Shown here one piece after another: positions 2,547 through 43,311 of a stretch of DNA of 44,033 nucleotides. The notes beneath the pieces were generated by a model. That model did not search any database, had not been told where the DNA came from, and saw nothing but the letters and a program-made list of their open reading frames with translations. How positions within the stretch are numbered: position 1 is the first letter of the stretch; every line of letters starts with the position of its first letter. A program made the position numbers and the translations under genes. Location: the UHGV virus genome UHGV-0039449. One strand, given 5' to 3'. This DNA is from a virus.

Positions 2547-2795
2547 TCATGCAGCGTTGCTCACGGGACGATATACACGTTGCTGAACAGGAGGTTTTTT
2601 ACCCTGGAACTCTGCCGGGCTTGCTGCCTGACGTTCATCAAGCCAACGCTCAACTTCGTCACGGTTCCATGCGCAGCGTTTGTCAGTGATATACCAGCGT
2701 TTAGGAAATTCCCCTGCGCGCTCCATACGGTCGATAGTGCTCCATGACAGTGGCACCACCGCCAGGAGTTCCTTCTTACCTAATGCACCTTTCAT
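2547..2795 (-). CDS. AlpA-family HTH transcriptional regulator / excisionase-like
   Basis: 82 aa; LSWSTIDRMERAGEFPKRWYITDKRCAWNRDEVERWLDER matches the AlpA/Xis-type winged HTH; GAGG RBS 6 nt upstream. Confidence 0.75.
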   Translation of the reverse strand: MKGALGKKELLAVVPLSWSTIDRMERAGEFPKRWYITDKRCAWNRDEVERWLDERQAASPAEFQGKKPPVQQRVYRPVSNAA

Positions 2796-2844
2796 AAATA
2801 CCTCTCTTGGTTGCAGTGCGGCGCGTGTGGCGGCGCGGTGGTGG

Positions 2845-3786
2845 TTACATAGATGTTTCGTTTAATTCTTCCCGACGAACGCTGTAAACGTCGGTGGCTT
2901 TTGCCAGCAGTTCGTCATCATCTGAAAGTTTTTGTGCAATGTATTTGTAAGCCTTATCCAGTTCGGAGACAGTGCTGTAATTCATCGCTGCGCTGGTAAA
3001 GGCCATCAGCATTTCTTCTGGATCACGGCTATCCGCTTTACGAGTTTGCTCATCAGGCTTTTTCACTGGTTTAGCGTTGATCAGACTGTTCATTCCCGCA
3101 GCAGTAGTTGTTTGCGGAGTAATGTCTCGCTCAACGCGCGGTGCCGTTTCCTGTAATTCGTCTGGTGTGTAGACGCCCATGATTACGTCAGGACAGTGCA
3201 AGCGAGACCAGCGTTTTGTCGCAAGGTATGCGAGTTGTTGTTTCGGATCACTGGCCCAAAGTGTGGAGTTTCTTACCTGTGCTTGAGACAGCATTAACTC
3301 AAGCACTCGAGGTTGATCCTCGCCCTTCATGGTTGCCCATACGCGAACACCGCAGCCTTCTTCGTCTTTTAGAGTCCAGCCTGGTGCGATATATGGATTG
3401 CCGTTTTTGGATGTTTTCTCAACAAACTTACCGATCACGCGTTCCCACGGCCCGAACCACTCGTAGTTGATGCGATCTTTTGTTGGCGACATCGTTGAGA
3501 TAACTGCGTTTACTAATTGGGCTTCATAACCTAGCGTGCCGTTCACAACATGGGTTTTCTGAGCAACGGCAAACGGGTTCATTCCCCACTGCGCAGCCTG
3601 CATTGCCACGGCCATGCAATCAGCTGGTTTCCCGGCGAGGTGCGCCGGTACCGTTACGCGGCTTTGCGCCATTACCTCGGCGAATTTCATCAGTTGGTTC
3701 AAGCCGTCTGGGCTGAAAATAGTTGCAGCAGTTCCAGCGATTGCTGTGTCTACTGGTGCGTTGATGTTTGCGATGTCGTTGCTCAT
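2845..3786 (-). CDS. recT: RecT-family single-strand annealing recombinase
   Basis: About 313 aa with RecT-like core (GMNPFAV...AYLATKRW). ATG overlaps the stop of the upstream exonuclease gene (ATGA). Confidence 0.8.
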   Translation of the reverse strand: MSNDIANINAPVDTAIAGTAATIFSPDGLNQLMKFAEVMAQSRVTVPAHLAGKPADCMAVAMQAAQWGMNPFAVAQKTHVVNGTLGYEAQLVNAVISTMSPTKDRINYEWFGPWERVIGKFVEKTSKNGNPYIAPGWTLKDEEGCGVRVWATMKGEDQPRVLELMLSQAQVRNSTLWASDPKQQLAYLATKRWSRLHCPDVIMGVYTPDELQETAPRVERDITPQTTTAAGMNSLINAKPVKKPDEQTRKADSRDPEEMLMAFTSAAMNYSTVSELDKAYKYIAQKLSDDDELLAKATDVYSVRREELNETSM

Positions 3787-4604
3787 ATGTACATATCCTG
3801 TTTGCGTGCCCACTCAGGGCGTTTAATGATTTCCACACCGCCCCATTCATCATTGATGCGGCATTCGTGATAGGTATTCAGATCCCGGCGGAACAGAGCG
3901 TGCCCGGCATCGACATCCTGCGCATCCAGCTCGAACACGCGTACCGGATACCGACCACAATCAATGCTTTCGCTCACGGCAAGAAAGAAAAAACCATGCG
4001 GCTGACCAGTAACCCTCATTGCGCCTTCGCGGTACATTGCGTCCTGCACGTGGTAGCGGAATTCTTCGATGTGGCGTGCAAAACGGTCCATATCTGCAAC
4101 CTTTTTCACGTCGACGATCACGTTGTGCTCGTTCAGCCATTTGTCTGGACGAATGCGGCACAACTCACCAGTCTCTTCATCGTTCCAGTACATTGATGCT
4201 TCGCAGTAACCAGGTGCTTCCAGCATCCAGCGTGCCGCCGGGTGAGCCATTGCGCTATCACGCATCAGCTCCAGTTTCCGCCACTGCTCGGCATCAAGTA
4301 CCGCAATCCCCATATCCGCTACATCACGAAGAAATGCTTCTTCGTCAGCTTTACCTTGTTTCGTCCGACGATCGAACTTTGGTGAAACAATGAAGCGTTT
4401 GTCGAATTCTCCAGGTTCAAGAAGCAGACAGTGCAATGCAGTTCCCATATCTAGTGCAGACTTTTTCTCTTCGTCTTCTGGTGCTGCCTGAACCCATTTA
4501 AGAAGCGCCGGATTCTTGGCAACCATGTCCAGTTGCGACTTACTCACGCCGTCACCGGCGTGGTAGTCCTCATTGCTGATGTCGAAATAGATGCCAGTAT
4601 TCAT
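3783..4604 (-). CDS. RecE-like PD-(D/E)xK exonuclease (exonuclease VIII-type)
   Basis: 273 aa; N-terminus GIYFDISNEDYHAGDGVSKSQL and IVDVKK motif typical of the RecE C-terminal nuclease fold; paired with RecT. Confidence 0.75.
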   Translation of the reverse strand: MNTGIYFDISNEDYHAGDGVSKSQLDMVAKNPALLKWVQAAPEDEEKKSALDMGTALHCLLLEPGEFDKRFIVSPKFDRRTKQGKADEEAFLRDVADMGIAVLDAEQWRKLELMRDSAMAHPAARWMLEAPGYCEASMYWNDEETGELCRIRPDKWLNEHNVIVDVKKVADMDRFARHIEEFRYHVQDAMYREGAMRVTGQPHGFFFLAVSESIDCGRYPVRVFELDAQDVDAGHALFRRDLNTYHECRINDEWGGVEIIKRPEWARKQDMYI

Positions 4605-5258: not shown

Positions 5259-5340
5259 AACTTGTTACCTCGGTCTGTTACCGTTGAGGTAATAATTATG
5301 CGTATCTGGTTTGATGTCAATAGATATGAGTTAAAAAAAA

Positions 5341-5355
5341 TTACCCAAAAGGTAA
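5341..5355. promoter_or_regulatory. Palindromic site TTACC-CAAAA-GGTAA (candidate operator at the leftward early promoter)
   Basis: Perfect 5+5+5 palindrome between the repressor terminator and the start of the leftward operon. Confidence 0.55.
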
Positions 5356-5365
5356 TCTAACAGGC

Positions 5366-5412: not shown

Positions 5413-5997
5413 TTATTGTTTGTTTTTTTCGTTCTGGTTGATGACAAATTCAATGTAACTTTCGATCTTTGCTTTCTCGGTTTCGGGTAACAATGCGTAG
5501 CGCGAGCGGTCATAGTTGATAGTCGCAGGGTCGTGCGGGTGAATCAGTAATTCATAGCCATGACGCCCGAATGCGGATGCAACATTCTCCAGGGTGGAAA
5601 TGGAAACGCTGACCTCATTGTTTAACAGGCGGCTGATTGTCACCTGGGCGACGCCGGATGCGCGGTGAAGTTTTCCCTGCGTTGAAAGGTCGCGGCTTTC
5701 GCTCATCCAGCGTTCCAGGTTGTGAGCCGCCAGCTGACCAATGTCGCTTGGGCCGACAGGCTGAAAACCTTCCTGAGAAAGCGAGCGATCGATATCAAGC
5801 CAGTTACGGGGTTTATTGGCGGCAGCTTCAATTTTTCGTGCAACCTGGTCGCCGATAACCTTCTTGCCAAGAGCCCAGCGGTTTACCAGATTTGCCTGAG
5901 TTCCAAGTTTTTCTGCCATCCGCGTCTGAACACCATTGAATTCACGGTCGATCAAGTCGTTGAGATTTTGCCTGCGGACGTCCTGGATACTTTTCAT
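5413..5997 (-). CDS. Putative prophage repressor with tandem XRE-type HTH domains
   Basis: 194 aa with two HTH-like segments (MAEKLGTQANLVNRWALGKK... and VAQVTISRLLNNEVSVSISTLENVASAF). Divergent from the Cro-like gene, with three palindromic sites between them. No S24 peptidase motif seen. Confidence 0.6.
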   Translation of the reverse strand: MKSIQDVRRQNLNDLIDREFNGVQTRMAEKLGTQANLVNRWALGKKVIGDQVARKIEAAANKPRNWLDIDRSLSQEGFQPVGPSDIGQLAAHNLERWMSESRDLSTQGKLHRASGVAQVTISRLLNNEVSVSISTLENVASAFGRHGYELLIHPHDPATINYDRSRYALLPETEKAKIESYIEFVINQNEKNKQ

Positions 5998-6052
5998 TTT
6001 CTGGAAAATCGCCTCATATATGAATCAGTAGATGATTCAATTTAAAGCAATA

Positions 6053-6115
6053 TTACCCAACAGGTAAATGCACCTCATGGGTAACTATCCTTGATTTTTG
6101 TTACCTTATGGGTGA
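6053..6115. promoter_or_regulatory. Three clustered palindromic sites between repressor and cro-like genes
   Basis: 6053-6067 TTACC-CAACA-GGTAA (perfect); 6070-6084 GCACC-TCATG-GGTAA (degenerate); 6101-6115 TTACC-TTATG-GGTGA (one mismatch). Confidence 0.6.
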
Positions 6116-6151: not shown

Positions 6152-6382
6152 ATGAGCGATAACGGACATTTCGATTTCAAAAAGCACTGGCTTGCACTTA
6201 CTCCGGATGAGCGTGAAGCCTTCGCACAGGAAGCCGGAACGACGAGTCACTATATCCAGACTCACTTAACAGGTAAGCGCAAAATGCCAGGTAAAGTATT
6301 GATGAATGGGCTTTTTAAAGCCTGTAAAACAAGACAATGGCTGCGCTCAAAAGCAGAACTGGCATACTTCTTCTACTCATGA
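6152..6382 (+). CDS. Cro-like small HTH regulator
   Basis: 76 aa, divergent from the repressor; FAQEAGTTSHYIQTHLTGKRKMPGK is HTH-like; followed by a terminator. Confidence 0.5.
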   Translation: MSDNGHFDFKKHWLALTPDEREAFAQEAGTTSHYIQTHLTGKRKMPGKVLMNGLFKACKTRQWLRSKAELAYFFYS

Positions 6383-8372: not shown

Positions 8373-8383
8373 CGTCTCAACAA

Positions 8384-8460
8384 TTACCTATCAGGTAATA
8401 AAATATTCTAAACTCTATTGATTTCGTGTCTTATGTGGTTTTTAATTACCTTAGAGGTAA
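8384..8460. promoter_or_regulatory. Two perfect palindromic sites flanking a putative promoter
   Basis: 8384-8398 TTACC-TATCA-GGTAA and 8446-8460 TTACC-TTAGA-GGTAA (ends 4 nt before ATG 8464); TTGATT-N17-TTTAAT between them. Confidence 0.5.
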
Positions 8461-14544: not shown

Positions 14545-14866
14545 AACGCTGAGAGCACTTAGCCTGTTAAGGCACCACACTTTGTCGCGGCTCCATAAAT
14601 GCTCTCATCGTTGCACCCTCGTCTCTTCCGAGGTGTCACACCGAATCGCCGGGATGGTGAATCCCCGTGCGCGGAATAAAACCGCTCGACTTGCACATTC
14701 CGGCTACCTGGTTCGTTTGCCCGAGCAAGGGAGGGTGCCACTTAAACGTATCCAGACCGCTATCGGCGCATGTGCCATACACCGTACTGCTCAAAATAAA
14801 AGCTCACCCCACCTGTTCAATTTAACGACAAGCCAGTCAGGTTAATAACCGGAATGAACTCTTTGC

Positions 14867-14881
14867 TTACCTGAAAGGTAA
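14867..14881. promoter_or_regulatory. Palindromic site TTACC-TGAAA-GGTAA upstream of the portal operon
   Basis: Perfect site about 90 nt upstream of ATG 14972. Confidence 0.5.
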
Positions 14882-14971
14882 TAATTAGTGCGTTAAATGT
14901 CAAGTGTCTACGATAAATAAATCACATGTGGTTAAATTGGTAATAATTTAATTGCGTACGGAGTCATTGAT

Positions 14972-31848: not shown

Positions 31849-32481
31849 TTAATGCAGTTTATCTTTGCTTATAACCAGTAGTCTGTGGGTATGCACATCT
31901 TTATCACTGCCCCAACAGAAATCAGCCCACTGGCTATAGAAATCATCCCATGATGTCATGAAGCTAAGAGGTCTATCTTCTTCAGAGCCATCTGAAACGT
32001 ATACATTATATCCTGGGGTGTTTATAGCCCAAGAAATCATTCTTTCCCAGAATCTTCTCCCATCGATTGTTTGTTGCTCATCAGATACAACGATCGCATA
32101 TTGCTCTAGGAAGAACTGAAAAAAAATCTGAGGCAAACCATGAACAGCACGGTCATGAATAACATTAGGCGTACGCCATACCATGATCTGCGTACATGTT
32201 CTTTTGGCTTCGACGATATCTTCCCGAAAGATTAACTTAACCGCATACACCGTTTCTGGAGTATCGCTGGTAGTAATCATTCTGTAATGATCGCCATTAC
32301 AAGATTTTACAAGGCGATAACCATAAGGTGTTGTGAATCCCGGAAGAACGAAATCAACCACACCTTTCGCTAAGTAGCTTTCGGTGTGACTAGTGTTCTT
32401 CTCAGACATGTTCAGTTTTCTATCGAAATCTGCTTCTGGGATAATGTATGGCATCGCTTTTCTTGTTGTATTTGTTCTCAT
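31849..32481 (-). CDS. Hypothetical protein (210 aa) of unknown function
   Basis: GGGAGG RBS 5 nt upstream; perfect TTACC-N5-GGTAA site about 60 nt upstream; own terminator; no recognisable domain. Confidence 0.5.
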   Translation of the reverse strand: MRTNTTRKAMPYIIPEADFDRKLNMSEKNTSHTESYLAKGVVDFVLPGFTTPYGYRLVKSCNGDHYRMITTSDTPETVYAVKLIFREDIVEAKRTCTQIMVWRTPNVIHDRAVHGLPQIFFQFFLEQYAIVVSDEQQTIDGRRFWERMISWAINTPGYNVYVSDGSEEDRPLSFMTSWDDFYSQWADFCWGSDKDVHTHRLLVISKDKLH

Positions 32482-32539: not shown

Positions 32540-32554
32540 CTTACCCTTGAGGTA
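32540..32554. promoter_or_regulatory. Palindromic site TTACC-CTTGA-GGTAA upstream of the 210-aa gene
   Basis: Perfect site about 60 nt upstream of the minus-strand start at 32481. Confidence 0.5.
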
Positions 32555-32627
32555 ATAGTACGCTATTCACCCCCAGTCTGCAATCTGTACAGAATTATTT
32601 AAAGGCACATCCCTGTGCCGCCGCCCG

Positions 32628-33284
32628 TCAGAAGAACCCTGCCTTGTCGTTGATGTACTCCGCGTGCGTCTGGATATCACGCAGGCATTTGCTCACACCA
32701 ACGATGTAGCAGAACATGGTGGTCAGCTCCGCCGCCGCGCCCGATACGTCGTGCCCGTCGTCCTGTAACTGGTTCAGCAGATTCATCAGCAGTGAGTTCT
32801 CCGTCAGGCCGAGAACACCAGACGGCGAGTGAATCAGGCTGCGGTAGCCGGGCTTCAGTGGGGCACTGTATTCTTTTTTGTCTTCCAGCTTGATCGCCTC
32901 CATAATGGCGGGCATGAAGCCTGACAAGACCTTCTCCACTTTTGTTTCTTGTTGTCTTAAACGTTTCTCGCATTCAATGAAGTAGCGTCGCACCTGGCGA
33001 CCTTTTTCGTTACGCTCGACCATCGCCAGCTCTTTGGCTGTATCAAGGGTGAGGTGGTACTCTTTGCGGTTGTGGCCGCCTCTACCAGATGTTTGCTTTC
33101 CCAAATTGGAAAGCAAAATATAGTCTTGATTTTCAATGAATTCGTATTCTGATATGCGATTTGTAATCCATGCTGCAAACACCTTTTTAACACCTAAAAA
33201 AGCGTGCAGATCGCGGGCATTACAAAGTAGGGCTGTTTCGTTAGATATAGTGCCGTTGAATACGGGGATGAGTTGAGCGTTCAT
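32628..33284 (-). CDS. Phage antirepressor (AntA-type N-terminal domain)
   Basis: 218 aa; [32 protein letters not shown]...[33 protein letters not shown] matches the AntA/AntB N-domain; GGAG RBS. Confidence 0.7.
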
Positions 33285-33442
33285 GATGGCGTCTCCACTT
33301 AGCGAATTACATCACCACCGCTGAGACCAATCAGATGGTGGTGAACTGAACGGAGTTGGTCTTACCGGCCTAAGTGGTACCGGCGTCCTTTCGGACCCCC
33401 ATTCAGCCCACCATAATTCTGGCATGACTGTGCTATACGCAT

Positions 33443-33465
33443 AAAAAAACCACGTCTGGCGTGGT
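33443..33465 (-). terminator. Terminator-like hairpin upstream of ant
   Basis: Minus strand ACCACGCC-AGA-CGTGGT region followed by TTTTTTTAT. Confidence 0.45.
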
Positions 33466-33555
33466 ATGCGCCACTTAGTAATCCGGGAGACCAATCCCGG
33501 CACTGGATTTTGCCAGTGCCCGATTACTATGGCACAAGAGGAGTGCGATGTAAAT

Positions 33556-33570
33556 TTACCGCAAAGGTAA
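33556..33570. promoter_or_regulatory. Palindromic site TTACC-GCAAA-GGTAA between the small Ant paralogue and ant
   Basis: Perfect site in the long leader region upstream of ant. Confidence 0.45.
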
Positions 33571-33601
33571 ATATAAGCACTCCATTTGGTAATTTCAAAC
33601 C

Positions 33602-33874
33602 TTATCTGGTTTGTTTTCGTAATTGTTCGGCACAATAGTCGAGATGTGTTTGCAGATCCTGCATAGACATCTGTGAGCTGGTGACGTAGTTAATCAGTGC
33701 AGTCAGTTCGGCAAGTGGGCCATCGACATTAAATCCATCCTTATCGAGATCCCGGAGTAATTTCATCAAGTGCGATCCCTCCACCAGTGACCTGACGCCT
33801 CCCGGCGTGTGAATCCTTTCGGTAAATCCCTCTTCCAGTGGATAGTGATACTGCTGCATCTTAATCTTCTCCAT
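33602..33874 (-). CDS. Small protein paralogous to the antirepressor C-terminal domain; candidate SOS-inducible antirepressor
   Basis: Aligns by eye to Ant residues about 150-210 (TPGGVRSLVEGSHLMKLLRDLDKDGFNVDGPLAELTALINYV vs [42 protein letters not shown]). Likely start is the second ATG at 33859; LexA-like box 33880-33899 just upstream. Confidence 0.5.
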   Translation of the reverse strand: MEKIKMQQYHYPLEEGFTERIHTPGGVRSLVEGSHLMKLLRDLDKDGFNVDGPLAELTALINYVTSSQMSMQDLQTHLDYCAEQLRKQTR

Positions 33875-33879
33875 GCAAT

Positions 33880-33899
33880 AACTGTATATTTATACAGTA
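33880..33899. promoter_or_regulatory. LexA (SOS) box-like sequence AACTGTATATTTATACAGTA
   Basis: CTGT-N8-ACAG with AT-rich spacer, 18 of 20 matches to the E. coli LexA consensus as I recall it; 20-40 nt upstream of the small Ant-paralogue start. Confidence 0.6.
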
Positions 33900-33936
33900 G
33901 CAAATAATTTGTTTGCTATCCAGCACGTTTTGCAAA

Positions 33937-33951
33937 TCACCTGAAAGGTAA
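33937..33951. promoter_or_regulatory. Palindromic site TCACC-TGAAA-GGTAA in the divergent region before the tailspike gene
   Basis: Four of five left-half matches, perfect right half; a further half-site GGTAA lies at 33997-34001. Confidence 0.4.
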
Positions 33952-34055
33952 TATCTATTCGAATTCACAGCCTTTCTATCCATATGTGGTTTTTCAGGTA
34001 ATAGAATAACCAGATATGCGGCGCAACGGGTGCTGCGATTATCTGGAGATTTAAC

Positions 34056-36425
34056 ATGACGGTCTCAACCGAAGTTGACCACAACGAATACACAGGTAAC
34101 GGCGTTACGACATCATTTCCGTATACCTTCCGTATTTTCAAAAAATCCGACCTGGTTGTTCAGGTGGTTGACCTTGATGAAAATATTGCTGTGCTGGCTC
34201 TTGATACTGATTACACAGTAACTGGTGCGGGAGGGTACAACGGCGGTAATGTAATTCTGTCGAAGGCGTTGGCTAACGGTTATCAGATTTCTATATCACG
34301 AGACCTCCCGGTTACGCAGGAAACTGATTTGCGTAATCAGGGTAAGTTCTTTGCAGAAGTGCATGAGGATGCTTTTGATAAGCTAACGATGCTGATTCAG
34401 CAGGTTCGAAGCTGGTTCCGGCTGGCGTTGTGTAAGCCATCCAGTATAGCGAATTGGTATGACGCACTTAATAACTATATTCGTAATCTGAAAGACCCAC
34501 GCGACCCTCAGGATGCAGCTACAAAAAACTATGTAGATACCATTGTATTCTCTAACCTTAGCCGAACTCTCCGAGTTCCTGAGCCAATAAATCAGTTACC
34601 TCCAGCAGCAGTTCGGCGGAATATGATGCCAGCATTTGATAATGATGGTAATGCGATTGTTGTTATTCCTCCATCTGGTTCAGCATCTGATGTGCTTATT
34701 CAGTTAGCAAGTTCTTCCGATGGAAAGGGGGATGCTTTAGTTGCAGTTAAACAACCTTATGCTAATTCTGTAACTATTACTCAACATCAGCACAACACCT
34801 ATCTTCTTACCCCTTACCACTTCGGAGCAAAGGGAGATGGTATTGCAGATGACACTCTTGCCCTAAACCGCTGGTCCAATTGCGGAGCTAAGGTACTCTA
34901 TTGGCCAGCAGGAAAATATCTGGTGAGCCCTACAAATGGTGTTTCTCTGGATATGGATAACTACCATACAGGGGATTCCGCACTGACGGCGTGCGTAACC
35001 GTTCCCTATGGCGTGAAAATTTATACGGCTGGGACAGAAACCCAGTTATGCGTGAAGGATGCTGACTCAGCATCGACCGTAGGTCTGGCCGTTAGCTACC
35101 CGGAGTCAAGTTATTCCCAGGGAGAAACCGACATCGGAAAATTCATGATTCGCCTGGAAAACGGAAATGGTCGGTACGGTATTCTTACTCCACTCAGGGA
35201 GGAAATGTTCACTGCGCACCGGGCGAAGTTCAAATTAGGAGCGCATTTCGGTCCTCAACAGGGGCGTGATGAACTGACGGTGCTACAGTATTCGTGGGTA
35301 AATGGCATGCTGATTGGCGACGCTTTTAGCGGCTCAGTGCATGTCACTGGATACGGCAGCTATAACGTGCAGCAGGTTGAAGGTACGCAATTCCAGTGCG
35401 TGGCCGTTAAGATGAAGTCCGTTCGAGGTAACGTAGGTGTAGACATCAGATTCAACACAAACAACTGGTGGAAGTTTGTCGAACTGAGTGACGGCGTTGA
35501 AGGGTTTGTTGTCAAGGACAGCGAAGGGCTTGGGGCATTTGTTGGAATCGACCTAACCAACCCAGCCAGCGAGCCAGGTGGATTTATCGATAACGTACAC
35601 GTCAACGTTAAGCAAAACGGAGTACGAGCCAGAAACAGGCCATCCCTGCAAATCGGAAACATTGAAGTCTATAAAAGTGATGGATTTGCCACTGACCTTG
35701 TTTACGATGCGGTGCTTCTGGTTGACTGCCAGGAAGTGACTATCAACTCTATTCACGCAATCGTCGGCAACTCAATCACAAATGCTCAGTCAGTAGTTAA
35801 CTCGACAAACAGCACATTCCGCCTGAACTCATACTTTGCGCAAAACATCAGGTTCGTCGATTTTGTGGTTAATAGCCCTGACTGCTATGTCGGAGAGGGG
35901 ACAATTAACCAGGTCGAGGCAGTTCACTCACTTTCTGGATCACAAAGCAACGACTTCCACGGTAGTGATGTTCTGGTTAGATCCTACAGAAACAACGTTC
36001 GCCCACTTTACGCAGTGATGGATTCCGCTTTCAACAGGGCAAGGGCGAGGTTTCCACAAAATACAAGCCTCCAGGTGAGAACCTTTCTCGACTACACTGT
36101 GGCAGCAGCTGGGACTTTAACAATAGAACCAAGGCTTGACCCCTCCAGGTACTACATCATCATGAGTGCTGGTACAAGTGCCTTCACCTATTCAATTGAG
36201 CTGGATAAAGTGTCTGCCGTAGTTGGTGATATTGTTTACATAAAGATAGCCGGGTCATCATCTGCTAACCCAACAGTTTTGGTTAAAAATGGTATTGGTG
36301 GGACAACGCTCAGCACATTCAATAATATCGGTCCGATTCGTTTGAATTGTGCTTACAGATTTAATGAGTCAGGTAACTGGGGGGCCTACTACATTACCCA
36401 AAGCGTTGAAACCTCTTATGGCTAA
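34056..36425 (+). CDS. Tailspike / tail fibre with beta-helix (pectate-lyase-like) domain
   Basis: 789 aa; N-terminus YTGNGVTTSFPYTFRIFKKSDLVV...DYTV typical of phage fibre anchor domains; HFGAKGDGIADDTLALNRW is a pectate-lyase-fold signature. Confidence 0.8.
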   Translation: MTVSTEVDHNEYTGNGVTTSFPYTFRIFKKSDLVVQVVDLDENIAVLALDTDYTVTGAGGYNGGNVILSKALANGYQISISRDLPVTQETDLRNQGKFFAEVHEDAFDKLTMLIQQVRSWFRLALCKPSSIANWYDALNNYIRNLKDPRDPQDAATKNYVDTIVFSNLSRTLRVPEPINQLPPAAVRRNMMPAFDNDGNAIVVIPPSGSASDVLIQLASSSDGKGDALVAVKQPYANSVTITQHQHNTYLLTPYHFGAKGDGIADDTLALNRWSNCGAKVLYWPAGKYLVSPTNGVSLDMDNYHTGDSALTACVTVPYGVKIYTAGTETQLCVKDADSASTVGLAVSYPESSYSQGETDIGKFMIRLENGNGRYGILTPLREEMFTAHRAKFKLGAHFGPQQGRDELTVLQYSWVNGMLIGDAFSGSVHVTGYGSYNVQQVEGTQFQCVAVKMKSVRGNVGVDIRFNTNNWWKFVELSDGVEGFVVKDSEGLGAFVGIDLTNPASEPGGFIDNVHVNVKQNGVRARNRPSLQIGNIEVYKSDGFATDLVYDAVLLVDCQEVTINSIHAIVGNSITNAQSVVNSTNSTFRLNSYFAQNIRFVDFVVNSPDCYVGEGTINQVEAVHSLSGSQSNDFHGSDVLVRSYRNNVRPLYAVMDSAFNRARARFPQNTSLQVRTFLDYTVAAAGTLTIEPRLDPSRYYIIMSAGTSAFTYSIELDKVSAVVGDIVYIKIAGSSSANPTVLVKNGIGGTTLSTFNNIGPIRLNCAYRFNESGNWGAYYITQSVETSYG

Positions 36426-36545
36426 TAGTCATTATCAATATCCTGCAGATGTGACCTAACGACAAGCGTCGCCACGATGACAACCACGGAAAGGATGCCG
36501 ATAACCCACCACATAACTTACCCGCGCAAAATGAATGGATAAAAA

Positions 36546-36755
36546 TCATCCGCTGATTGATCCTAATCTTTGCATATTTTTCGAAGATGTTACGTTTAGT
36601 TGGGCGAAAAAAGCAATTACAGCAATGCCACCTATCGACGTAAGTCCGAAAAAGCAAGGCTCAGGTCTGCCGCTAATTGGGTATTGATGGCTTACAAGGA
36701 CTACAAGTGATGCGATAAGCCTGATCACGTCAAAGCAATTATGTCTGTTATTCAT
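36546..36755 (-). pseudogene. Remnant of an acyltransferase-3 family gene (O-antigen acetylase-like)
   Basis: N-terminal 69 aa (FDVIRLIASLVVLVSHQYPISG) match the start of acyltransferase-3 membrane proteins, then a premature stop; the downstream frame is junk. Confidence 0.4.
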
Positions 36756-36792
36756 ATATCCATACTGTAGGAAATAGCGATACGAAACAATA

Positions 36793-36807
36793 TCACCTCA
36801 CGGGTAA
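36793..36807. promoter_or_regulatory. Palindromic site TCACC-TCACG-GGTAA upstream of the lysis cassette
   Basis: About 105 nt upstream of the putative holin start. Confidence 0.4.
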
Positions 36808-36911
36808 TTTAGAGATAGGTGGACTCATAAAATTTAATTCATATATGGTTTATGTGTATTATAAACCCAATAACCAATGGGGTGGATTATACACAGTAAT
36901 CGGCGGTCTTT

Positions 36912-37316
36912 ATGTCAGTTCAACTAACTAGTGAGTCTTTAAATCAGTGGCTTAGTATGAGTTCTCTTGCGGCAGTAATAGCTGGAGTACCTCCAGAAGT
37001 GGCGTTGGGTTCTTTGGCTGGTGCAGTAATTTTTGTTACCTCTGCTGTAGAATATCCAATCCGCCGCCGGGTGCTCCTGTCGATGCTCAGCTTTCTTTGC
37101 GGTCTTCTCTTTTACAAACCAGCAGCATCAATTCTTATCGGCATAGCCACCCTGATCCCTACCATCACACAGGACTCTTTTGAGAAAGGGATTGTTTTCT
37201 CTGCTGGTGCATTCGTGTCAGCAATCGTCGCAGTTCGAATTGGCATCTGGCTCTATCACCGTTCAGATAATCCACGCGAGTTAATTCCGGGGAGAAAAGA
37301 CGATGGTAACGCATGA
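36912..37316 (+). CDS. Putative holin / membrane protein
   Basis: 134 aa with several predicted TM helices, immediately upstream of the lysis genes; palindromic site 36793-36807 upstream. Confidence 0.45.
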   Translation: MSVQLTSESLNQWLSMSSLAAVIAGVPPEVALGSLAGAVIFVTSAVEYPIRRRVLLSMLSFLCGLLFYKPAASILIGIATLIPTITQDSFEKGIVFSAGAFVSAIVAVRIGIWLYHRSDNPRELIPGRKDDGNA

Positions 37317-37611
37317 GTTTTTTTTGCTTATCACCAATGCAGTTATTTGTACTGGTATAGCAATTCGTGTTGTCACATTCCGGCGTAACGGTTCACAACA
37401 CCGAAGATGGGGAGGGTGGCTTGCTTATTTCCTTATTGTTGCTGCGGCCAGTATTCCTGTTCGTGTCGTCTATGCAATCTGGTTACGCACGCCAATGGCT
37501 GTGGATTTATCTGAGGTCATTATCAACGCTGTCATGCTTGCTGCGGTTCTTAAAACTCGCGGTAACGTCGTTCAGATTTTCAAAATAACGAGGTCTAAAC
37601 ATGGAGATTAA
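37303..37611 (+). CDS. Putative holin or antiholin
   Basis: 102 aa, three predicted TM helices, overlapping the previous gene and ending just after the endolysin start. Confidence 0.45.
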
Positions 37612-38230
37612 ACAATTCCAGCGAGCTGCTGGTATTAGCGAGGCGCTGGCCGCACGCTGGTTCTCGCATATAACTTCTGCTATGAAAGAGTTTGGTATCA
37701 GCAAACCAGAAGATCAGGCAATGTTTATTGCTCAGGTCGGGCATGAGTCTGGGGGCTTCACCAGATTGGAGGAGAATTTCAACTACAGTGTCAGCGGACT
37801 GGCTAACTTCGTTCGGGCTGGGCGTCTCACTCAGGGGCAGGCTAATGCACTGGGGCGCCGTGCTGGTGAACCACCATTGCCACTTGAGCGCCAGCGCGCG
37901 ATCGCAAATCTGGTATACAGCAAACGCATGGGGAACAATGCCCCTGGTGATGGCTGGAATTACCGAGGGCGCGGACTTATCCAGATTACCGGTTTGAATA
38001 ACTATCGTGATTGCGGAAACGGTCTGAAGGTTGACCTGCTGGAGAGCCCTGAACTGCTGGCGCAGGACGAATATGCGGCTCGTAGCGCGGCGTGGTTCTT
38101 CGCCAGCAAAGGATGCATGAAGTATACCGGCGATATTGCACGTGTAACTCTGATTATCAATGGTGGCAGAAACGGTATCGACGACCGGCGTGCGCGGTAC
38201 ATCACAGCAAGTAAGGTACTGGCGGTATGA
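37601..38230 (+). CDS. Endolysin, glycoside hydrolase family 19-like
   Basis: 209 aa; motifs [12 protein letters not shown] and [16 protein letters not shown] typical of GH19 phage endolysins. Confidence 0.8.
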
Positions 38231-39120: not shown

Positions 39121-39897
39121 TTATGAGCCATTGGTAATCGCACCCATGACAATTTGAAAGAGTTCTTCTGCTCGATTAGTGGAGCCAATTGCACCTCTTT
39201 CTCTCGCCATTCTCTTGTGCTCTGGTAGATCTGAGGACGCATAGATCATAAAAGGAGTTTTGTCTCCCATTGCGCGTAATCTTTCTAGTAAGACATAACC
39301 TTCTTGCGCCCCTTCTTTGCGATCCATATCCGAAATAATAGCTGCAAACTTATTTGTTTTTAACAATTCTAAGGCTTCGTCAGTTGAAAGAGCTAAAGCG
39401 AACTCTATTCCCTGTGCCTCAAATGCCTGTCTTTCGTAAACATTATTTTCTGGTCGATCATCCACCCATAAAATACGATTTCGCCATTTTTCATGCTTAC
39501 TCTGCCGTTTTGCATTGGATACAACGTTGACGATTTTTCGCAGTTGGCTTTCAGTGACCCCTGCACTATTTTCAGGCTGTTTTGCTGTGGCGGCGGTCAA
39601 TGATGCTGCTGTAGCTATTTGCGCTCTTAAAAAATTATTTTCATCTTTGAAATCTGACGGCCCGTAAAGCTTATTATGATGTTTCGCAACAAGCCAGAGA
39701 AAGCCAAGAAACACAATGACAGGAAAGAAAACCATGAAATAAATAAGGGGAGCTATATGCTCTGATAAGCCATTACCAAAGCCAACGACGAAAGAGGCAA
39801 ATCCATAAACGAGAACAATAAAGAGTGCAATGATACCAAGAGGGCTTTTGGTAAATCCTATTGCAGTTTCAGCAAATTTCTCTGGTTCCATATCCAT
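39121..39897 (-). CDS. Two-TM membrane protein with C-terminal CheY-like receiver (REC) domain; orphan
   Basis: 258 aa. Two hydrophobic helices, then REC-like hallmarks: ILWVDDRPENN (beta1 acidic pair), AAIISDMDR (beta3 Asp), PFMIYASS (beta4 Ser). Likely start is the third codon, ATG 39891 (GAGG 6 nt upstream). No histidine kinase in the window. Confidence 0.5.
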   Translation of the reverse strand: MDMEPEKFAETAIGFTKSPLGIIALFIVLVYGFASFVVGFGNGLSEHIAPLIYFMVFFPVIVFLGFLWLVAKHHNKLYGPSDFKDENNFLRAQIATAASLTAATAKQPENSAGVTESQLRKIVNVVSNAKRQSKHEKWRNRILWVDDRPENNVYERQAFEAQGIEFALALSTDEALELLKTNKFAAIISDMDRKEGAQEGYVLLERLRAMGDKTPFMIYASSDLPEHKRMARERGAIGSTNRAEELFQIVMGAITNGS

Positions 39898-39984
39898 CCT
39901 CAGTATTGCTCATAACACAGTTAAGTTGTATTAGATCAGACCTGATCTGACAATTACCGGCTATTTATAAAGGTATCTGTCAGA

Positions 39985-40380
39985 TTACATCTGGCTTAAG
40001 TTTTTCTCATCCCAGATGTGCTTTCCATCAAGTAACGTTTCCATCGGCGTTCGGCCACTGCACATTTTTCCCTGATGGGTTCGCTCATTATTATAGTGAA
40101 CCCGCCATTCATCAAGAACCGATTGTAATGCTTCAAGATCATCATATAACTTTTTGCGGAACGTCACCTGATAAAACTCGTTCAGTATCGTTTTATGGAA
40201 CTGCTCGCAGATACTATTGGTCTTAGATGACATTGCTTTCGTTTTCGTATGCTCAATATCATTTATCGCCAGATAAAGCTGGTAATCATGCTGCTCCACT
40301 TTACCGCAATCTCTTGGTGTATTGAGAGGCGGGTTATAAAATAAATACTGATACCATGAGGGCGGATCAATCGTGGTCAT
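39985..40380 (-). pseudogene. DDE transposase remnant (IS481/IS3-like integrase core, internally deleted)
   Basis: 131-aa ORF with no RBS; SKTNSICEQFHKTILNEF and DEWRVHYNNERTHQG resemble the C-terminal motifs of rve-type transposases; N-terminal HTH part missing. Confidence 0.4.
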
Positions 40381-40395
40381 AGTATCAGGTCATTC

Positions 40396-41910
40396 TCATG
40401 GGTTTATTGCGTCCCTGAAGATGACGTCGCTGACCATCTCTCCTCCAAGAAAATCGATCAACATATTCGAGTTTTCAAGGTCTTCTCTGGTCAATGCCCC
40501 GATTGCTTGTCCAACTACTACCTCCCAAGGTTTTTTACACTCAACAATAGCACAGACGAGTTGGCGGATTTTCTTGATCTTCTTGTGACGCAATCGGTCG
40601 TTCGATTCCATTAGTTTTGCAATCAACGCTATGTCGGAGTGTGTTTGATTATCCTCAACCCATTTTTTGGCTGCGTCTACAAATTCCACCCATGTAACAT
40701 TCATTACTGCAAGGCATGAATCAGTCAAAAGAACATTTTCGATAGCGTAGCATCGTAAGCGATAGCGTTTAAGAGGTAGGCGATGTTCAAGCGACTCGTT
40801 GATTACACCATCGCCATCACGAAGGGAAAAGGCGATTGGATTGTCATAGAGTGTACTAAGGAGGTCTACGCAAAAATCCTCAAGTTGACTCTGTTGATCT
40901 ACGCTACCTGCTAGTACGGGAAAGATTTTTATTCGACCCTGTGATGTTCTGGCCGCTTGTTGCCAGACTCGTTCGTCGTCCTCTCCTTCCAAAATTAATG
41001 CAGCGTCTTCGCTAAGAGAAAGCGATAGGGGGTGCCCGAAGAATGGTGCAATCTTTCGAAGTTCATCGCTGGCCGGTATCAATGAGATTTCATTCACTGC
41101 AAAGCTCTTCGTGCCGATTGATACATATGGGGAGGCGGCAAGAGAACAGACGAGCGGGGAACTATGGGTGGATAAGCATATGGCAATACTGTTCGCGTGT
41201 GTTCTAAATTCGTCGAGCATACTGATTATCAGCTTGCCCAGTCTAGCTTGGAGGTCGGGGTGCAGATGTACATCAGGCTCATCGAGGAGGAGTACGTTGA
41301 ATTTCTCCGGATCTATTGTGTCGAAGAAATAGATGATTTCCGCGGCTAATGCAACCGCTTCCGATTCACCGCTACTGATTTGGGCCGGATCAATAATCTG
41401 ACCATCTACAAGTGATCGAAACTCATAATCGACATTACCCATCTCGAGCGAAATGTTAGTGAGAAGCTGATTAATTTTACTTAATCGGTCTGTCTGAAAG
41501 TTTCGCGTTAGATCAGTTCGAATTTCCGGAGTATTGGCAAGTCGACGTAAGTAAAGCGTCTCGGCCTCGCGAAATAGCATAGCCGATGCAGCTTTGAAGT
41601 TGCTTGCCTGATTAACTGCCCGAGTGTGCCTCAGCCATTCGGGGTTGTCGCTCATATTTGTGAGGACGGTGCCATCACGCTTGAACGATCCTGCTCGCTC
41701 TGGACTTACATACCGGACATAAAATTGCTGCTTGTTCTGGCTGATTGTTTGTTCGATATCACGAAGGAAACGACTTTTTCCCGCACCGTTTCGGCCCATA
41801 ATTATGTTGATGTTGTTTAAGCCGTAAAGTCGGCCAATTTGGCTAGATAACTCGCTTACTTTCAAGATTGTAACTCCATTTTTTGTTGCCACATACGATA
41901 TCAAATACAC
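40396..41910 (-). CDS. OLD-family ABC-type ATPase fused to a Toprim/DUF4435-like nuclease domain (OLD / PARIS AriAB-like)
   Basis: Walker A GRNGAGKS; signature-like ISSGESE; Walker B/D-loop VLLLDEPDVHLHP; H-loop STHS; C-terminal LILEGEDDE ... LRDGDG ... CYAIENVLL as in Toprim/DUF4435. Start may be TTG 41865 (GGAG 8 nt upstream) rather than GTG 41910. Confidence 0.65.
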   Translation of the reverse strand: MYLISYVATKNGVTILKVSELSSQIGRLYGLNNINIIMGRNGAGKSRFLRDIEQTISQNKQQFYVRYVSPERAGSFKRDGTVLTNMSDNPEWLRHTRAVNQASNFKAASAMLFREAETLYLRRLANTPEIRTDLTRNFQTDRLSKINQLLTNISLEMGNVDYEFRSLVDGQIIDPAQISSGESEAVALAAEIIYFFDTIDPEKFNVLLLDEPDVHLHPDLQARLGKLIISMLDEFRTHANSIAICLSTHSSPLVCSLAASPYVSIGTKSFAVNEISLIPASDELRKIAPFFGHPLSLSLSEDAALILEGEDDERVWQQAARTSQGRIKIFPVLAGSVDQQSQLEDFCVDLLSTLYDNPIAFSLRDGDGVINESLEHRLPLKRYRLRCYAIENVLLTDSCLAVMNVTWVEFVDAAKKWVEDNQTHSDIALIAKLMESNDRLRHKKIKKIRQLVCAIVECKKPWEVVVGQAIGALTREDLENSNMLIDFLGGEMVSDVIFRDAINP

Positions 41911-42169
41911 TAACTGAATAGGTGCGTTGATGCCTCATTTTGTTCACATCTATGTTGAAATTAGTGATGTGACCGAGCTAAGGACTCTATTAGGAGTAGA
42001 GCGGCCATATTGTTCGTCTGAACAGCCTGTAGACAGCTCTATTATTGAGACATGGTATTTTTCGTGGTATCTGCTAAGTGGTTTGTTTCAATGCATTGAT
42101 TTATTTATATTTTATTTTCTCATTGATAGCTGAGTGGGAATGATTTTGATCCCTGCACTATGAATGAAC

Positions 42170-42199
42170 AAAACCCTCTGTTACTACAGAGGGTTTTTT
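42170..42199. terminator. Hairpin terminator at the island/host boundary, downstream of yfgI
   Basis: AAAACCCTCTG-TTACTACA-GAGGGTTTTTT, with A/T runs on both sides. Confidence 0.6.
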
Positions 42200-42237
42200 A
42201 TCTTCAAGAATTATAGGCTTGAAGTTACTTACATCGA

Positions 42238-42777
42238 TTAATTAAACCAGCTGTCCGATTTGTTCTCTTCTGCTTTACCCACGCTTTTCATCAGATCGCG
42301 ACCGCCTTCAGTCATATTTCTGTTTGCGTCAGCTTCAGATTGCACCACATCGGTTTGCGCAGCTTTGTGCTTCAGTTCCTGATCGATAAATTCGTTTTCG
42401 CGCTTGACGCGGGCTTCTTCTTTCGCCAGCGCCAGTTTTTGTTTCTGAATCTCTAAGCTACGTAGCTCATCTTCATAACTTTGATCGCGTTTTTTGTCCG
42501 CAGTGGCTTCGGCGTCCAGTTTATCCTGACGAGCTTTCTTATTCGCTGCTGCCGTTGCCGCTCTTTTATTAGCCGCGGCCTGGGCGTTTGCGCGACGTTG
42601 CTTCTCTTGCTGGATTTCCCTGTTGCGCTCCGCGACCCATTCGTCATGCTGCCTTTGCTCTTCATTTTTACCTTGCTGTTCCGCTTCTGCGACAGCCGAG
42701 AGTTGATCCTGCAATGATGAGGCGATAGCCGGATAGCTTAAGGAGGCTAAGATGGCGCAAAGAAAAACTTTCTTCAT
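42238..42777 (-). CDS. yfgI: Host periplasmic protein YfgI-like (signal peptide plus charged coiled coil)
   Basis: 179 aa with MKKVFLCAILASLSYPAIA signal; recognised from memory as E. coli YfgI; adjacent to YfgH- and YfgG-like genes in the same orientation. Confidence 0.55.
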   Translation of the reverse strand: MKKVFLCAILASLSYPAIASSLQDQLSAVAEAEQQGKNEEQRQHDEWVAERNREIQQEKQRRANAQAAANKRAATAAANKKARQDKLDAEATADKKRDQSYEDELRSLEIQKQKLALAKEEARVKRENEFIDQELKHKAAQTDVVQSEADANRNMTEGGRDLMKSVGKAEENKSDSWFN

Positions 42778-42792
42778 GACTCCTCCTGATTA

Positions 42793-43311
42793 TTAGCTCT
42801 TTTCAGGACATTTGGTATTTGGCTGAATACGCGTTTCGTTATACGTCGTGGTAATAACAACGGCTAAACCTGTCGTAAACTGGCACTCTTTACCCACCTG
42901 GGTGGAGGTATACACTTTGGTGCCTTCCTTATATGTTAAAGAAACACCTTCCACTAAGGTTTTATCATTCACCATAGAACCCGCTGCTGCGCCAACAGCT
43001 CCGCCGCCAACTGCACCTGCTGTCGTTCCGGAATTGCTGCCAGACCCGACGTTGTGGCCGATAACACCGCCAGCGACAGCGCCAATAAGCGCGCCGAAGG
43101 CTTGTGCGTTCCGTTTATTTTGGGCGTTGTCTACGGCAACTTTTGCGGGAAGAATGGAAATAATATTAACGGTTTTAGTTTCTTGTTTGGTATTCAGTTG
43201 ATCGGTTTGATAAACATCGGCGGCATGATCATCAGCATTTGACTGGCATCCTGCCAGAGTGAATGACGCTAACATTGCCACAGGCAGAAGACATTTTTTA
43301 AATTTCATCAC
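42793..43311 (-). CDS. yfgH: Host outer-membrane lipoprotein YfgH-like (glycine-zipper)
   Basis: 172 aa; lipobox LAGC; glycine-zipper GALIGAVAGGVIGHNVGSG. Confidence 0.55.
   Translation of the reverse strand: MMKFKKCLLPVAMLASFTLAGCQSNADDHAADVYQTDQLNTKQETKTVNIISILPAKVAVDNAQNKRNAQAFGALIGAVAGGVIGHNVGSGSNSGTTAGAVGGGAVGAAAGSMVNDKTLVEGVSLTYKEGTKVYTSTQVGKECQFTTGLAVVITTTYNETRIQPNTKCPEKS

Follow-up and report, generated by a model that had tools for sequence, protein, structure and literature searches.

In several Salmonella prophages, the SOS response and the self-cleavage of LexA lead to the production of an antirepressor, Ant, which inhibits the prophage repressor through protein-protein contact, as summarised in PMC7380047 (citing Kim & Ryu 2013 among others). 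For Salmonella phage SPC32H, SOS-dependent expression of ant, binding of Ant to the repressor Rep, and ant-dependent induction are reported in the accounts given by PMC7380047 and PMC9638917; the latter describes Rep as binding DNA as a tetramer, and a tetrameric Ant as binding two Rep dimers and splitting the Rep tetramer. In the GenBank record of SPC32H, the pair is annotated as ant (SPC32H_020) and rep. PDB entry 5D50 is the Rep-Ant complex of this phage, and 5D4Z is a further entry for the same system (Kim & Ryu 2013, J Virol 87:11775; Kim et al. 2016, PNAS 113:E2480). Antirepressors can also be controlled by small RNAs. At the Gifsy-1 isrK-orf45-anrP locus, the short IsrK RNA switches on translation of the read-through transcript, and a processed RNA from further downstream has complementarity to IsrK (Hershko-Shalev et al. 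2016, PMC4825925). In phages P1 and P7, the immI region contains the c4-icd-ant operon (Citron & Schuster 1990, cited via PMC7313666). The same trio of isrK, C4 and a Bro-N protein has been noted in APSE phages.

The window, i.e., the whole stretch of 44,033 nucleotides analysed here (UHGV-0039449), is an integrated phiV10/epsilon15-type podovirus prophage (Uetakevirus) of E. coli, with an integrase at 50-1300, a tailspike gene at 34056-36425 that is divergent from ant and has a common intergenic region with it, and a holin and endolysin at 36912-38230. An earlier note on this DNA had suggested that induction is wired through a LexA-repressed mini-antirepressor, and our comparison supports this suggestion through the orthology of the two proteins to SPC32H Ant and Rep and through a conserved LexA site. 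Overall, we assign a probability of roughly 0.85 to the reading that this E. coli prophage carries an SPC32H-type relay from LexA through Ant to Rep, together with an optional, RNA-controlled second antirepressor.

The small antirepressor gene, ant, lies on the minus strand at 33602..33859 and encodes an 85-aa orthologue of SPC32H Ant. The open reading frame as a whole runs from 33874 to 33602 on the minus strand and would yield 90 aa, in agreement with the 85-90 aa noted earlier for the gene behind the LexA box. The second ATG, at 33859, which gives the 85-aa product, is preceded by a GGAG Shine-Dalgarno sequence and is equivalent to the annotated and crystallised start of SPC32H Ant; conservation of the first, at 33874, does not extend to the Klebsiella relatives. 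The product is ~89% identical to that of SPC32H ant and 96-99% identical to those of phiV10-group genes, and it matches PDB 5D50 chain E ('Anti-repressor protein') with E = 1.7e-47 over residues 7-89. The identity to this solved structure settles the fold of the small protein. A large-database search with small Ant returned 138 clusters; of the 120 that were listed, almost all are Enterobacteriaceae proteins of 85-86 aa that stand alone. The Pfam search gave no family match, and DUF724 was dismissed because its score was sub-threshold. In PHROGs, small Ant falls in phrog_450, labelled 'unknown function', and RefSeq labels the gene 'hypothetical protein'; such labels represent an annotation gap, given an orthologue with a crystal structure and a known role.

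The partner protein is encoded far from ant. The prophage repressor gene, rep, occupies 5413..5997 on the minus strand and encodes 194 aa with two helix-turn-helix regions; no other product of the window is a plausible prophage repressor. A divergent cro-like gene at 6152-6382 (plus strand) encodes a 76-aa protein matching phrog_35, transcriptional repressor. Rep aligns over its full length with PDB 5D50 chain A ('Repressor') at 42% identity (E = 4e-42), and its C-terminal half aligns with residues 92-198 of SPC32H Rep, the HTH/tetramerisation domain. Its Pfam matches are confined to helix-turn-helix families (HTH_3), and the same search found no Peptidase_S24 domain. These results agree with the earlier observation that the repressor shows no RecA-dependent self-cleavage domain. 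Lambda-type self-cleaving repressors carry a C-terminal Peptidase_S24 domain with a Ser-Lys dyad; we rejected a cryptic S24 domain in Rep, since Pfam reports none and the C-terminal half matches SPC32H Rep instead. Rep is 100% identical to the repressors of phiV10, phiv142-3, ZX5 and others.

A second antirepressor gene, at 32628..33284 on the minus strand, encodes a 218-aa protein with an AntA domain at residues 22-92 (Pfam PF08346, E = 4e-26) and an Ant-like C-domain at residues ~128-213 (32646-32903). This protein belongs to phrog_377, 'anti-repressor Ant', and matches 5D50_E directly (E = 8e-14). Small Ant aligns with its residues 128-210 at 42% identity (E = 4e-17), which bears out the earlier view of the small product as a paralogue of the C-terminal third of its AntA-type neighbour. 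The same note had called a duplication of only the Ant C-domain unusual, a description that does not hold, given that the phrog_450 domain recurs as a C-terminal module in anti-repressor families phrog_377, 1760 and 14211 and also in sister phages. In the latter, the C-terminal Ant-like domain is constant and the N-domain swaps between AntA (the window and phiv142-3) and Bro-N (phiV10, TL-2011b and ZX5). We likewise rejected the idea that the duplication is unique to the window prophage, as it is present in E. coli, Enterobacter and Klebsiella relatives in addition to several PHROG families; a recurrent domain with interchangeable N-domain partners describes it better. The C-domain is likely the Rep-binding module. 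In ZX5 (Escherichia phage vB_EcoP_ZX5), prophage titres fell from 10^9 to 10^6 and rep transcription dropped when the homologous ORF4 was overexpressed (Li et al. 2022, PMC9782041). Because the Rep of ZX5 is identical to that of the window, this result indicates, by analogy, that the 218-aa protein is a working antirepressor of the window Rep.

The activity of the large protein raises the question of whether small Ant acts on the same repressor. It could be that Ant and its LexA box are functional, but that Ant acts in trans on the repressors of other prophages, or has another role in the SOS response, and that the 218-aa protein is the real Rep antirepressor. The unequal divergence from the SPC32H partners (42% identity for Rep vs 89% for Ant) would fit such a role, as would the finding that in ZX5, with its identical Rep, the large protein alone shifts the phage from lysogeny (PMC9782041), and Gifsy and Fels-2 prophages are known to make antirepressors that act in trans (PMC7380047). 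However, Ant and Rep homologues co-occur in essentially one set of ~35 phage records, and the alignment of Rep with 5D50_A is full-length over both domains. Furthermore, not all relatives carry the unit consisting of isrK, C4 and the large ant gene. The E. coli phiV10 group, Enterobacter phage Tyrion and some Klebsiella phages have this optional unit, but SPC32H, epsilon15, BUCT554 and BUCT711 do not, and the large protein is likewise missing from PAS61, so that Ant must be the inducer in the phages without it. We therefore consider an Ant that acts elsewhere improbable, and an Ant directed at the Rep of its own prophage remains the preferred reading.

Alternatively, small Ant might modulate its large paralogue rather than Rep, by co-assembling with it, either to activate AntA-Ant in an SOS-dependent manner or to act on it as a dominant-negative partner. 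The common domain is 42% identical, SPC32H Ant is described as a tetramer in the account of PMC9638917, and the two genes are neighbours on one strand, where a terminator scan detected none between the ant stop codon (33602) and the isrK unit. Yet many relatives have small Ant alone, an identity of 42% is low for the preservation of mixed interfaces, and we found no evidence of hetero-oligomers, all of which makes this possibility very improbable compared with direct action of small Ant on Rep.

The relay further requires that ant respond to LexA. A LexA (SOS) box, TACTGTATAAATATACAGTT on the ant strand (33880..33899, minus strand), lies 20 nt 5' of the ant start codon. Written as AACTGTATATTTATACAGTA (33880-33899), it has two mismatches to the LexA consensus TACTGTATATATATACAGTA, i.e., 18 of 20 positions match, and it spans -21 to -40 relative to the ATG at 33859; the near-consensus site that the earlier note had placed 20-40 nt upstream of the small gene is thus borne out. 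When the 44-kb window was searched with the consensus at ≤3 mismatches, this box was the sole match, and none of 100 dinucleotide-preserving shuffles of the window yielded any match. Scoring with a LexA weight matrix, a check proposed in the earlier note, gave 27.6 bits, above every one of the 26 E. coli SOS boxes used for training (maximum 26.9), although the matrix is approximate. The runner-up in the window scored 12.2 bits by the same matrix, and the heterology index of the box is ~1.5. In each of the 10 relatives compared, which belong to E. coli, Salmonella, Enterobacter or Klebsiella, the best LexA site was found at the matching position, 18-20 nt 5' of the ant ATG. The CTGT/ACAG half-sites are invariant except in Klebsiella, and the central bases vary.

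A candidate ant promoter at 33894..33922 (minus strand) comprises a -35 TGGATA (33922-33917) and, after a spacer of 17 nt, a -10 TACTGT with a TG extension; this -10 (33899-33894) coincides with the six leading bases of the LexA box. The promoter is weak, with 4/6 and 3/6 consensus matches plus the extended TG, and a standard sigma-70 consensus scan called no promoter in the ant upstream region. Its geometry recurs in 8 of the 11 aligned phages under a relaxed scan, and CTGGATAG and TG.TACTGT form invariant blocks in the alignment of this region. The LexA box would thus cover the -10 and the start site, predicted at ~33887, of this putative promoter, and we infer that LexA occupies 33880-33899. 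That the palindrome is instead a chance AT-rich sequence, or serves the divergent tailspike gene, is hardly credible: the standard scan called no sigma-70 promoter beside it and the intergenic region is common to both genes, but the shuffles produced no such site, its score exceeds those of genuine SOS boxes, its half-sites are conserved around a varying centre over four genera, and its distance from the ant ATG stays at 18-20 nt, vs ~157 nt from the ATG of the tailspike gene.

LexA might not be the only regulator of ant. The palindrome ATTACC-N5-GGTAAT occurs at 15 sites in the window at ≤2 mismatches, vs 1.1 expected, and many of these are intergenic, including one in the rep/cro switch region (6052..6068, palindrome scan). 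Another copy lies in the ant-tailspike intergenic region at 33936..33952, 37 nt 5' of the LexA box; it is conserved in 11 of 11 aligned phages, and the equivalent site is annotated as a repressor binding site in the GenBank record of epsilon15. The palindrome is likely the Rep operator. Given such a site 5' of ant, ant may not be controlled by LexA alone, and Rep may also touch both antirepressor units.

The spacer between ant and the gene for the 218-aa protein is 317 nt long and contains isrK-like and C4-type RNAs identified with Rfam, which the earlier note had left unremarked. A promoter scan identified an isrK promoter at 33526..33571 (minus strand), with a -35 TTTACA, 17 nt, and a TG-extended -10 CATAGT (TGcCATAGT). 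A Rep-operator-like palindrome at 33555-33571 abuts its -35, and both the promoter hexamers and the operator half-sites are invariant in six lineages, with a spacer that varies. Transcription is predicted to start at ~33519, exactly where the Rfam isrK match begins. This isrK-like small RNA (33443..33519, minus strand; RF01394) is full length and scores 67.7 bits against a gathering score of 50; on the same strand it contains the C4 targets b1 (33496-33487) and a1 (33478-33471) and the stem of an intrinsic terminator found by the terminator scan (33465-33449). The overlapping c4-a1b1 element RF03163 scores 39.9 bits, under its gathering score of 46.7. Next comes a full-length C4-type antisense RNA at 33334..33418 (minus strand; RF01695, 61.2 bits, gathering score 45), with loops a' (CCACUUAG, 33377-33370) and b' (AGACCAA, 33362-33356) on the same strand. 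Matches to isrK and C4 were found in six relatives.

The two loops are exactly complementary to CUAAGUGG and UUGGUCU within isrK. They are also complementary to a downstream pair in the region 33295..33332 (minus strand), formed by b2 (GAUUGGUCUC, 33332-33323) and a2 (CUAAGUGG, 33302-33295); the underlying direct and inverted repeats are exact over 8 and 10 nt. The a2 target and the Shine-Dalgarno of the 218-aa gene (GUGGAG) overlap, as they do in every phage compared. The a'/a1/a2 and b'/b1/b2 sets covary, giving four sequence types across the phages: besides the pairing of the window, phiV10 and TL-2011b pair CCUUUUAG with CUAAAAGG and ACGCCAA with UUGGCGU, Tyrion and Klebsiella ST512 pair CCUUUGUAG with CUACAAAGG, and Kp4865 pairs GUCUCAA with UUGAGAC. 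This covariation provides strong comparative evidence for a function at the RNA level. Together with the pairing over the Shine-Dalgarno, it suggests that the large antirepressor is under RNA control of the P1-immI/Gifsy-1 type and not under direct LexA control; by comparison with these systems, the C4-type RNA would repress the 218-aa gene. A 37-aa open reading frame at 33425-33312 overlaps C4; comparison with phiV10, TL-2011b, Tyrion and Klebsiella ST512 shows no conservation of its reading frame or its peptide. Given this lack of conservation, we do not claim a coupled upstream open reading frame of the icd/orf45 kind.

Based on these observations, we propose that, in the lysogen, host LexA would sit on the SOS box over the ant promoter and start site and keep ant silent. 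Upon DNA damage, active RecA would promote LexA self-cleavage and the 85-aa Ant would be made. Ant would then bind the non-cleavable, two-HTH Rep (5413-5997), an interaction extrapolated across the large divergence of Rep (42% vs 89% identity to the SPC32H partners for Rep and Ant). Rep would leave its ATTACC-N5-GGTAAT operators, and the lytic genes would be turned on. The promoter flanked by a Rep operator would produce the isrK-like RNA carrying a1/b1 and ending at the terminator, and read-through would produce the C4-type antisense RNA. Pairing of its a'/b' loops with a2/b2 over the ribosome-binding site would block translation of the 218-aa AntA-Ant, as in P1 immI and Gifsy-1 isrK-anrP.

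The two units might also be coupled. As there is no terminator between ant and isrK, SOS-induced ant transcripts would run into isrK, where the a1/b1 decoy could titrate C4 and unlock the large AntA-Ant. We put this forward tentatively and regard it as rather doubtful. If true, the locus would act as a two-stage feed-forward switch, in which LexA controls small Ant and an RNA decoy and these in turn lead to large Ant, and the paralogous C-domains would either both act against one Rep or assemble into mixed tetramers. We found no prior description of a protein-plus-RNA relay joining SPC32H-type and P1-immI-type modules.

With or without coupling, the locus is a natural example of stacked control, with one antirepressor under LexA and its paralogue under Rep and a C4/IsrK-type RNA. 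Among complete E. coli genomes, 79 of 5,426 have at least 80% of the locus, so antibiotics that trigger the SOS response should induce such prophages via Ant and not via repressor cleavage. The finding opens no long-standing question.

The likeness to known systems is closest for SPC32H. Both phages belong to the same genus (Uetakevirus), and in both, ant lies between the tailspike and upstream structural genes, with a LexA box at an equal distance 5' of ant; Ant is ~89% identical, and Rep shares the two-HTH architecture and aligns over its full length, without S24. In contrast, the window Rep is of the phiV10 immunity type, SPC32H lacks a second antirepressor and an isrK/C4 module 3' of ant, and it is the SPC32H relay that has been characterised by structure and genetics. 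The large antirepressor is most readily compared with ORF4 of ZX5, whose C-domain shares 91% identity with the C-domain of the 218-aa protein and whose overexpression pushes ZX5 away from lysogeny (PMC9782041), although its N-domain is Bro-N and not AntA. The account of ZX5 in PMC9782041 does not mention a small ant gene, LexA or RNAs.

The logic of a LexA-repressed small antirepressor acting against a repressor that RecA cannot cleave is also that of 186 Tum, Gifsy-1/3 GfoA/GftA and Fels-2 Tum, as summarised in PMC7380047 (systems: Shearwin 1998; Lemire et al. 2011, PMC3121763). The earlier note had likened the relay to 186 Tum and Gifsy-type prophages; this comparison stands for the logic but not for descent, as the true relative is SPC32H Ant (~89% identity) and the Pfam and PHROGs searches gave no evidence of homology to Tum or the Gifsy proteins. 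Small Ant falls in phrog_450 and in no Pfam family; we treat it as a functional analogue of Tum and GfoA and not as a member of their family. The antirepressor AntC of phage N15 follows the same LexA-repressed logic.

As in Gifsy-1 and P1 immI, an isrK-family RNA with its own terminator is followed by a C4-family RNA and then an antirepressor gene, and the C4 loops match one upstream and one downstream target pair, the downstream one at a ribosome-binding site. The isrK promoter is flanked by a prophage-repressor operator, as is the case for P1 Op51. Unlike in these systems, a2 in the window lies directly on the Shine-Dalgarno of the antirepressor gene with no conserved icd/orf45-like upstream open reading frame, the module is located directly 3' of a LexA-controlled ant, and the C-domain of its antirepressor is a paralogue of small Ant. 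Overall, the relay is the orthologue of a characterised system and so is not new, real but ordinary; the window copy differs in the immunity type of Rep (42% identity), and its RNA-controlled second antirepressor is also of an already known kind.

Seventeen-nucleotide palindromes of the form ATTACC-N5-GGTAAT occur at 15 sites in the window, an approximately 13-fold over-representation, and many of the copies are intergenic. Examples lie at 5340-5356, 6052-6068, 8383-8399 and 14866-14882, with further ones at 32540-32556, 33555-33571, 33936-33952 and 36792-36808. We consider this palindrome to be probably the operator of Rep, the prophage repressor (5413-5997). The copies are dispersed over the prophage rather than limited to one switch region, and the predicted promoters of both antirepressor genes are flanked by them. 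One such operator-like site (32540-32556) also precedes a 210-aa ORF on the minus strand (31849-32481), downstream of the large antirepressor gene, which matched phrog_1349 (unknown function) over its full length and to which no Pfam family was assigned.

The small antirepressor gene ant (33602-33859) is labelled "hypothetical protein" in RefSeq and "unknown function" in PHROGs (phrog_450), which represents an annotation gap, given that for its orthologue the structure has already been solved and the role demonstrated. Its stop codon is overlapped by a terminator-like hairpin at 33596-33613 on the plus strand, opposite to ant. The epsilon15 record annotates the equivalent terminator and assigns it to the convergent gene; the hairpin could serve as a stop for late-operon transcripts running antisense into ant. 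Between ant and the 218-aa large antirepressor gene, isrK-like and C4-type antisense RNAs are located on the minus strand (33334-33519), a pair that was outside the finding as first noted. Sequence comparison across phages showed covariation of the C4 targets, one of which covers the Shine-Dalgarno sequence of the 218-aa gene.

Elsewhere in the window, short minus-strand ORFs after the tailspike gene (36394-36755) resemble, as judged by eye, the N-terminus of a membrane acyltransferase. Because phiV10 carries the O-antigen acetyltransferase gene oac at the equivalent position, these ORFs may represent a degraded oac. Past the lysis genes, the gene content of 39121-43311 is not phage-like and includes a response-regulator receiver-domain protein, an rve_3 integrase-core fragment, a 504-aa AAA_15/AbiEii-like ATPase that is possibly a defence gene, a DUF5384 protein and a glycine-zipper/TraT-like lipoprotein.

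Rep is 98.5-100% identical among phages whose large antirepressors share the C-domain and differ in the N-domain (window 32904-33284; phiV10 locus 3107-3691; TL-2011b locus 3906-4601). The occurrence of AntA or Bro-N on a common C-domain is a clean case of N-domain swapping. In phiV10, the large antirepressor (locus 3012-3691) appears broken inside the Ant-like C-domain: the annotation splits it into a 194-aa protein and a 29-aa ORF, and tblastn coverage of it takes two pieces; the split annotation and the two pieces together suggest a frameshift in this type phage. In TL-2011b, an insertion of ~1.1 kb (locus 2780-3868), annotated solely as "similar to hypothetical protein", lies between ant and the isrK unit (both RNAs and the large antirepressor gene), parting the two antirepressor modules. 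Compared with their SPC32H counterparts, Ant is 89% identical and Rep only 42%. Either the Rep surface recognised by Ant is conserved, or ant and rep have been reassorted through recombination.
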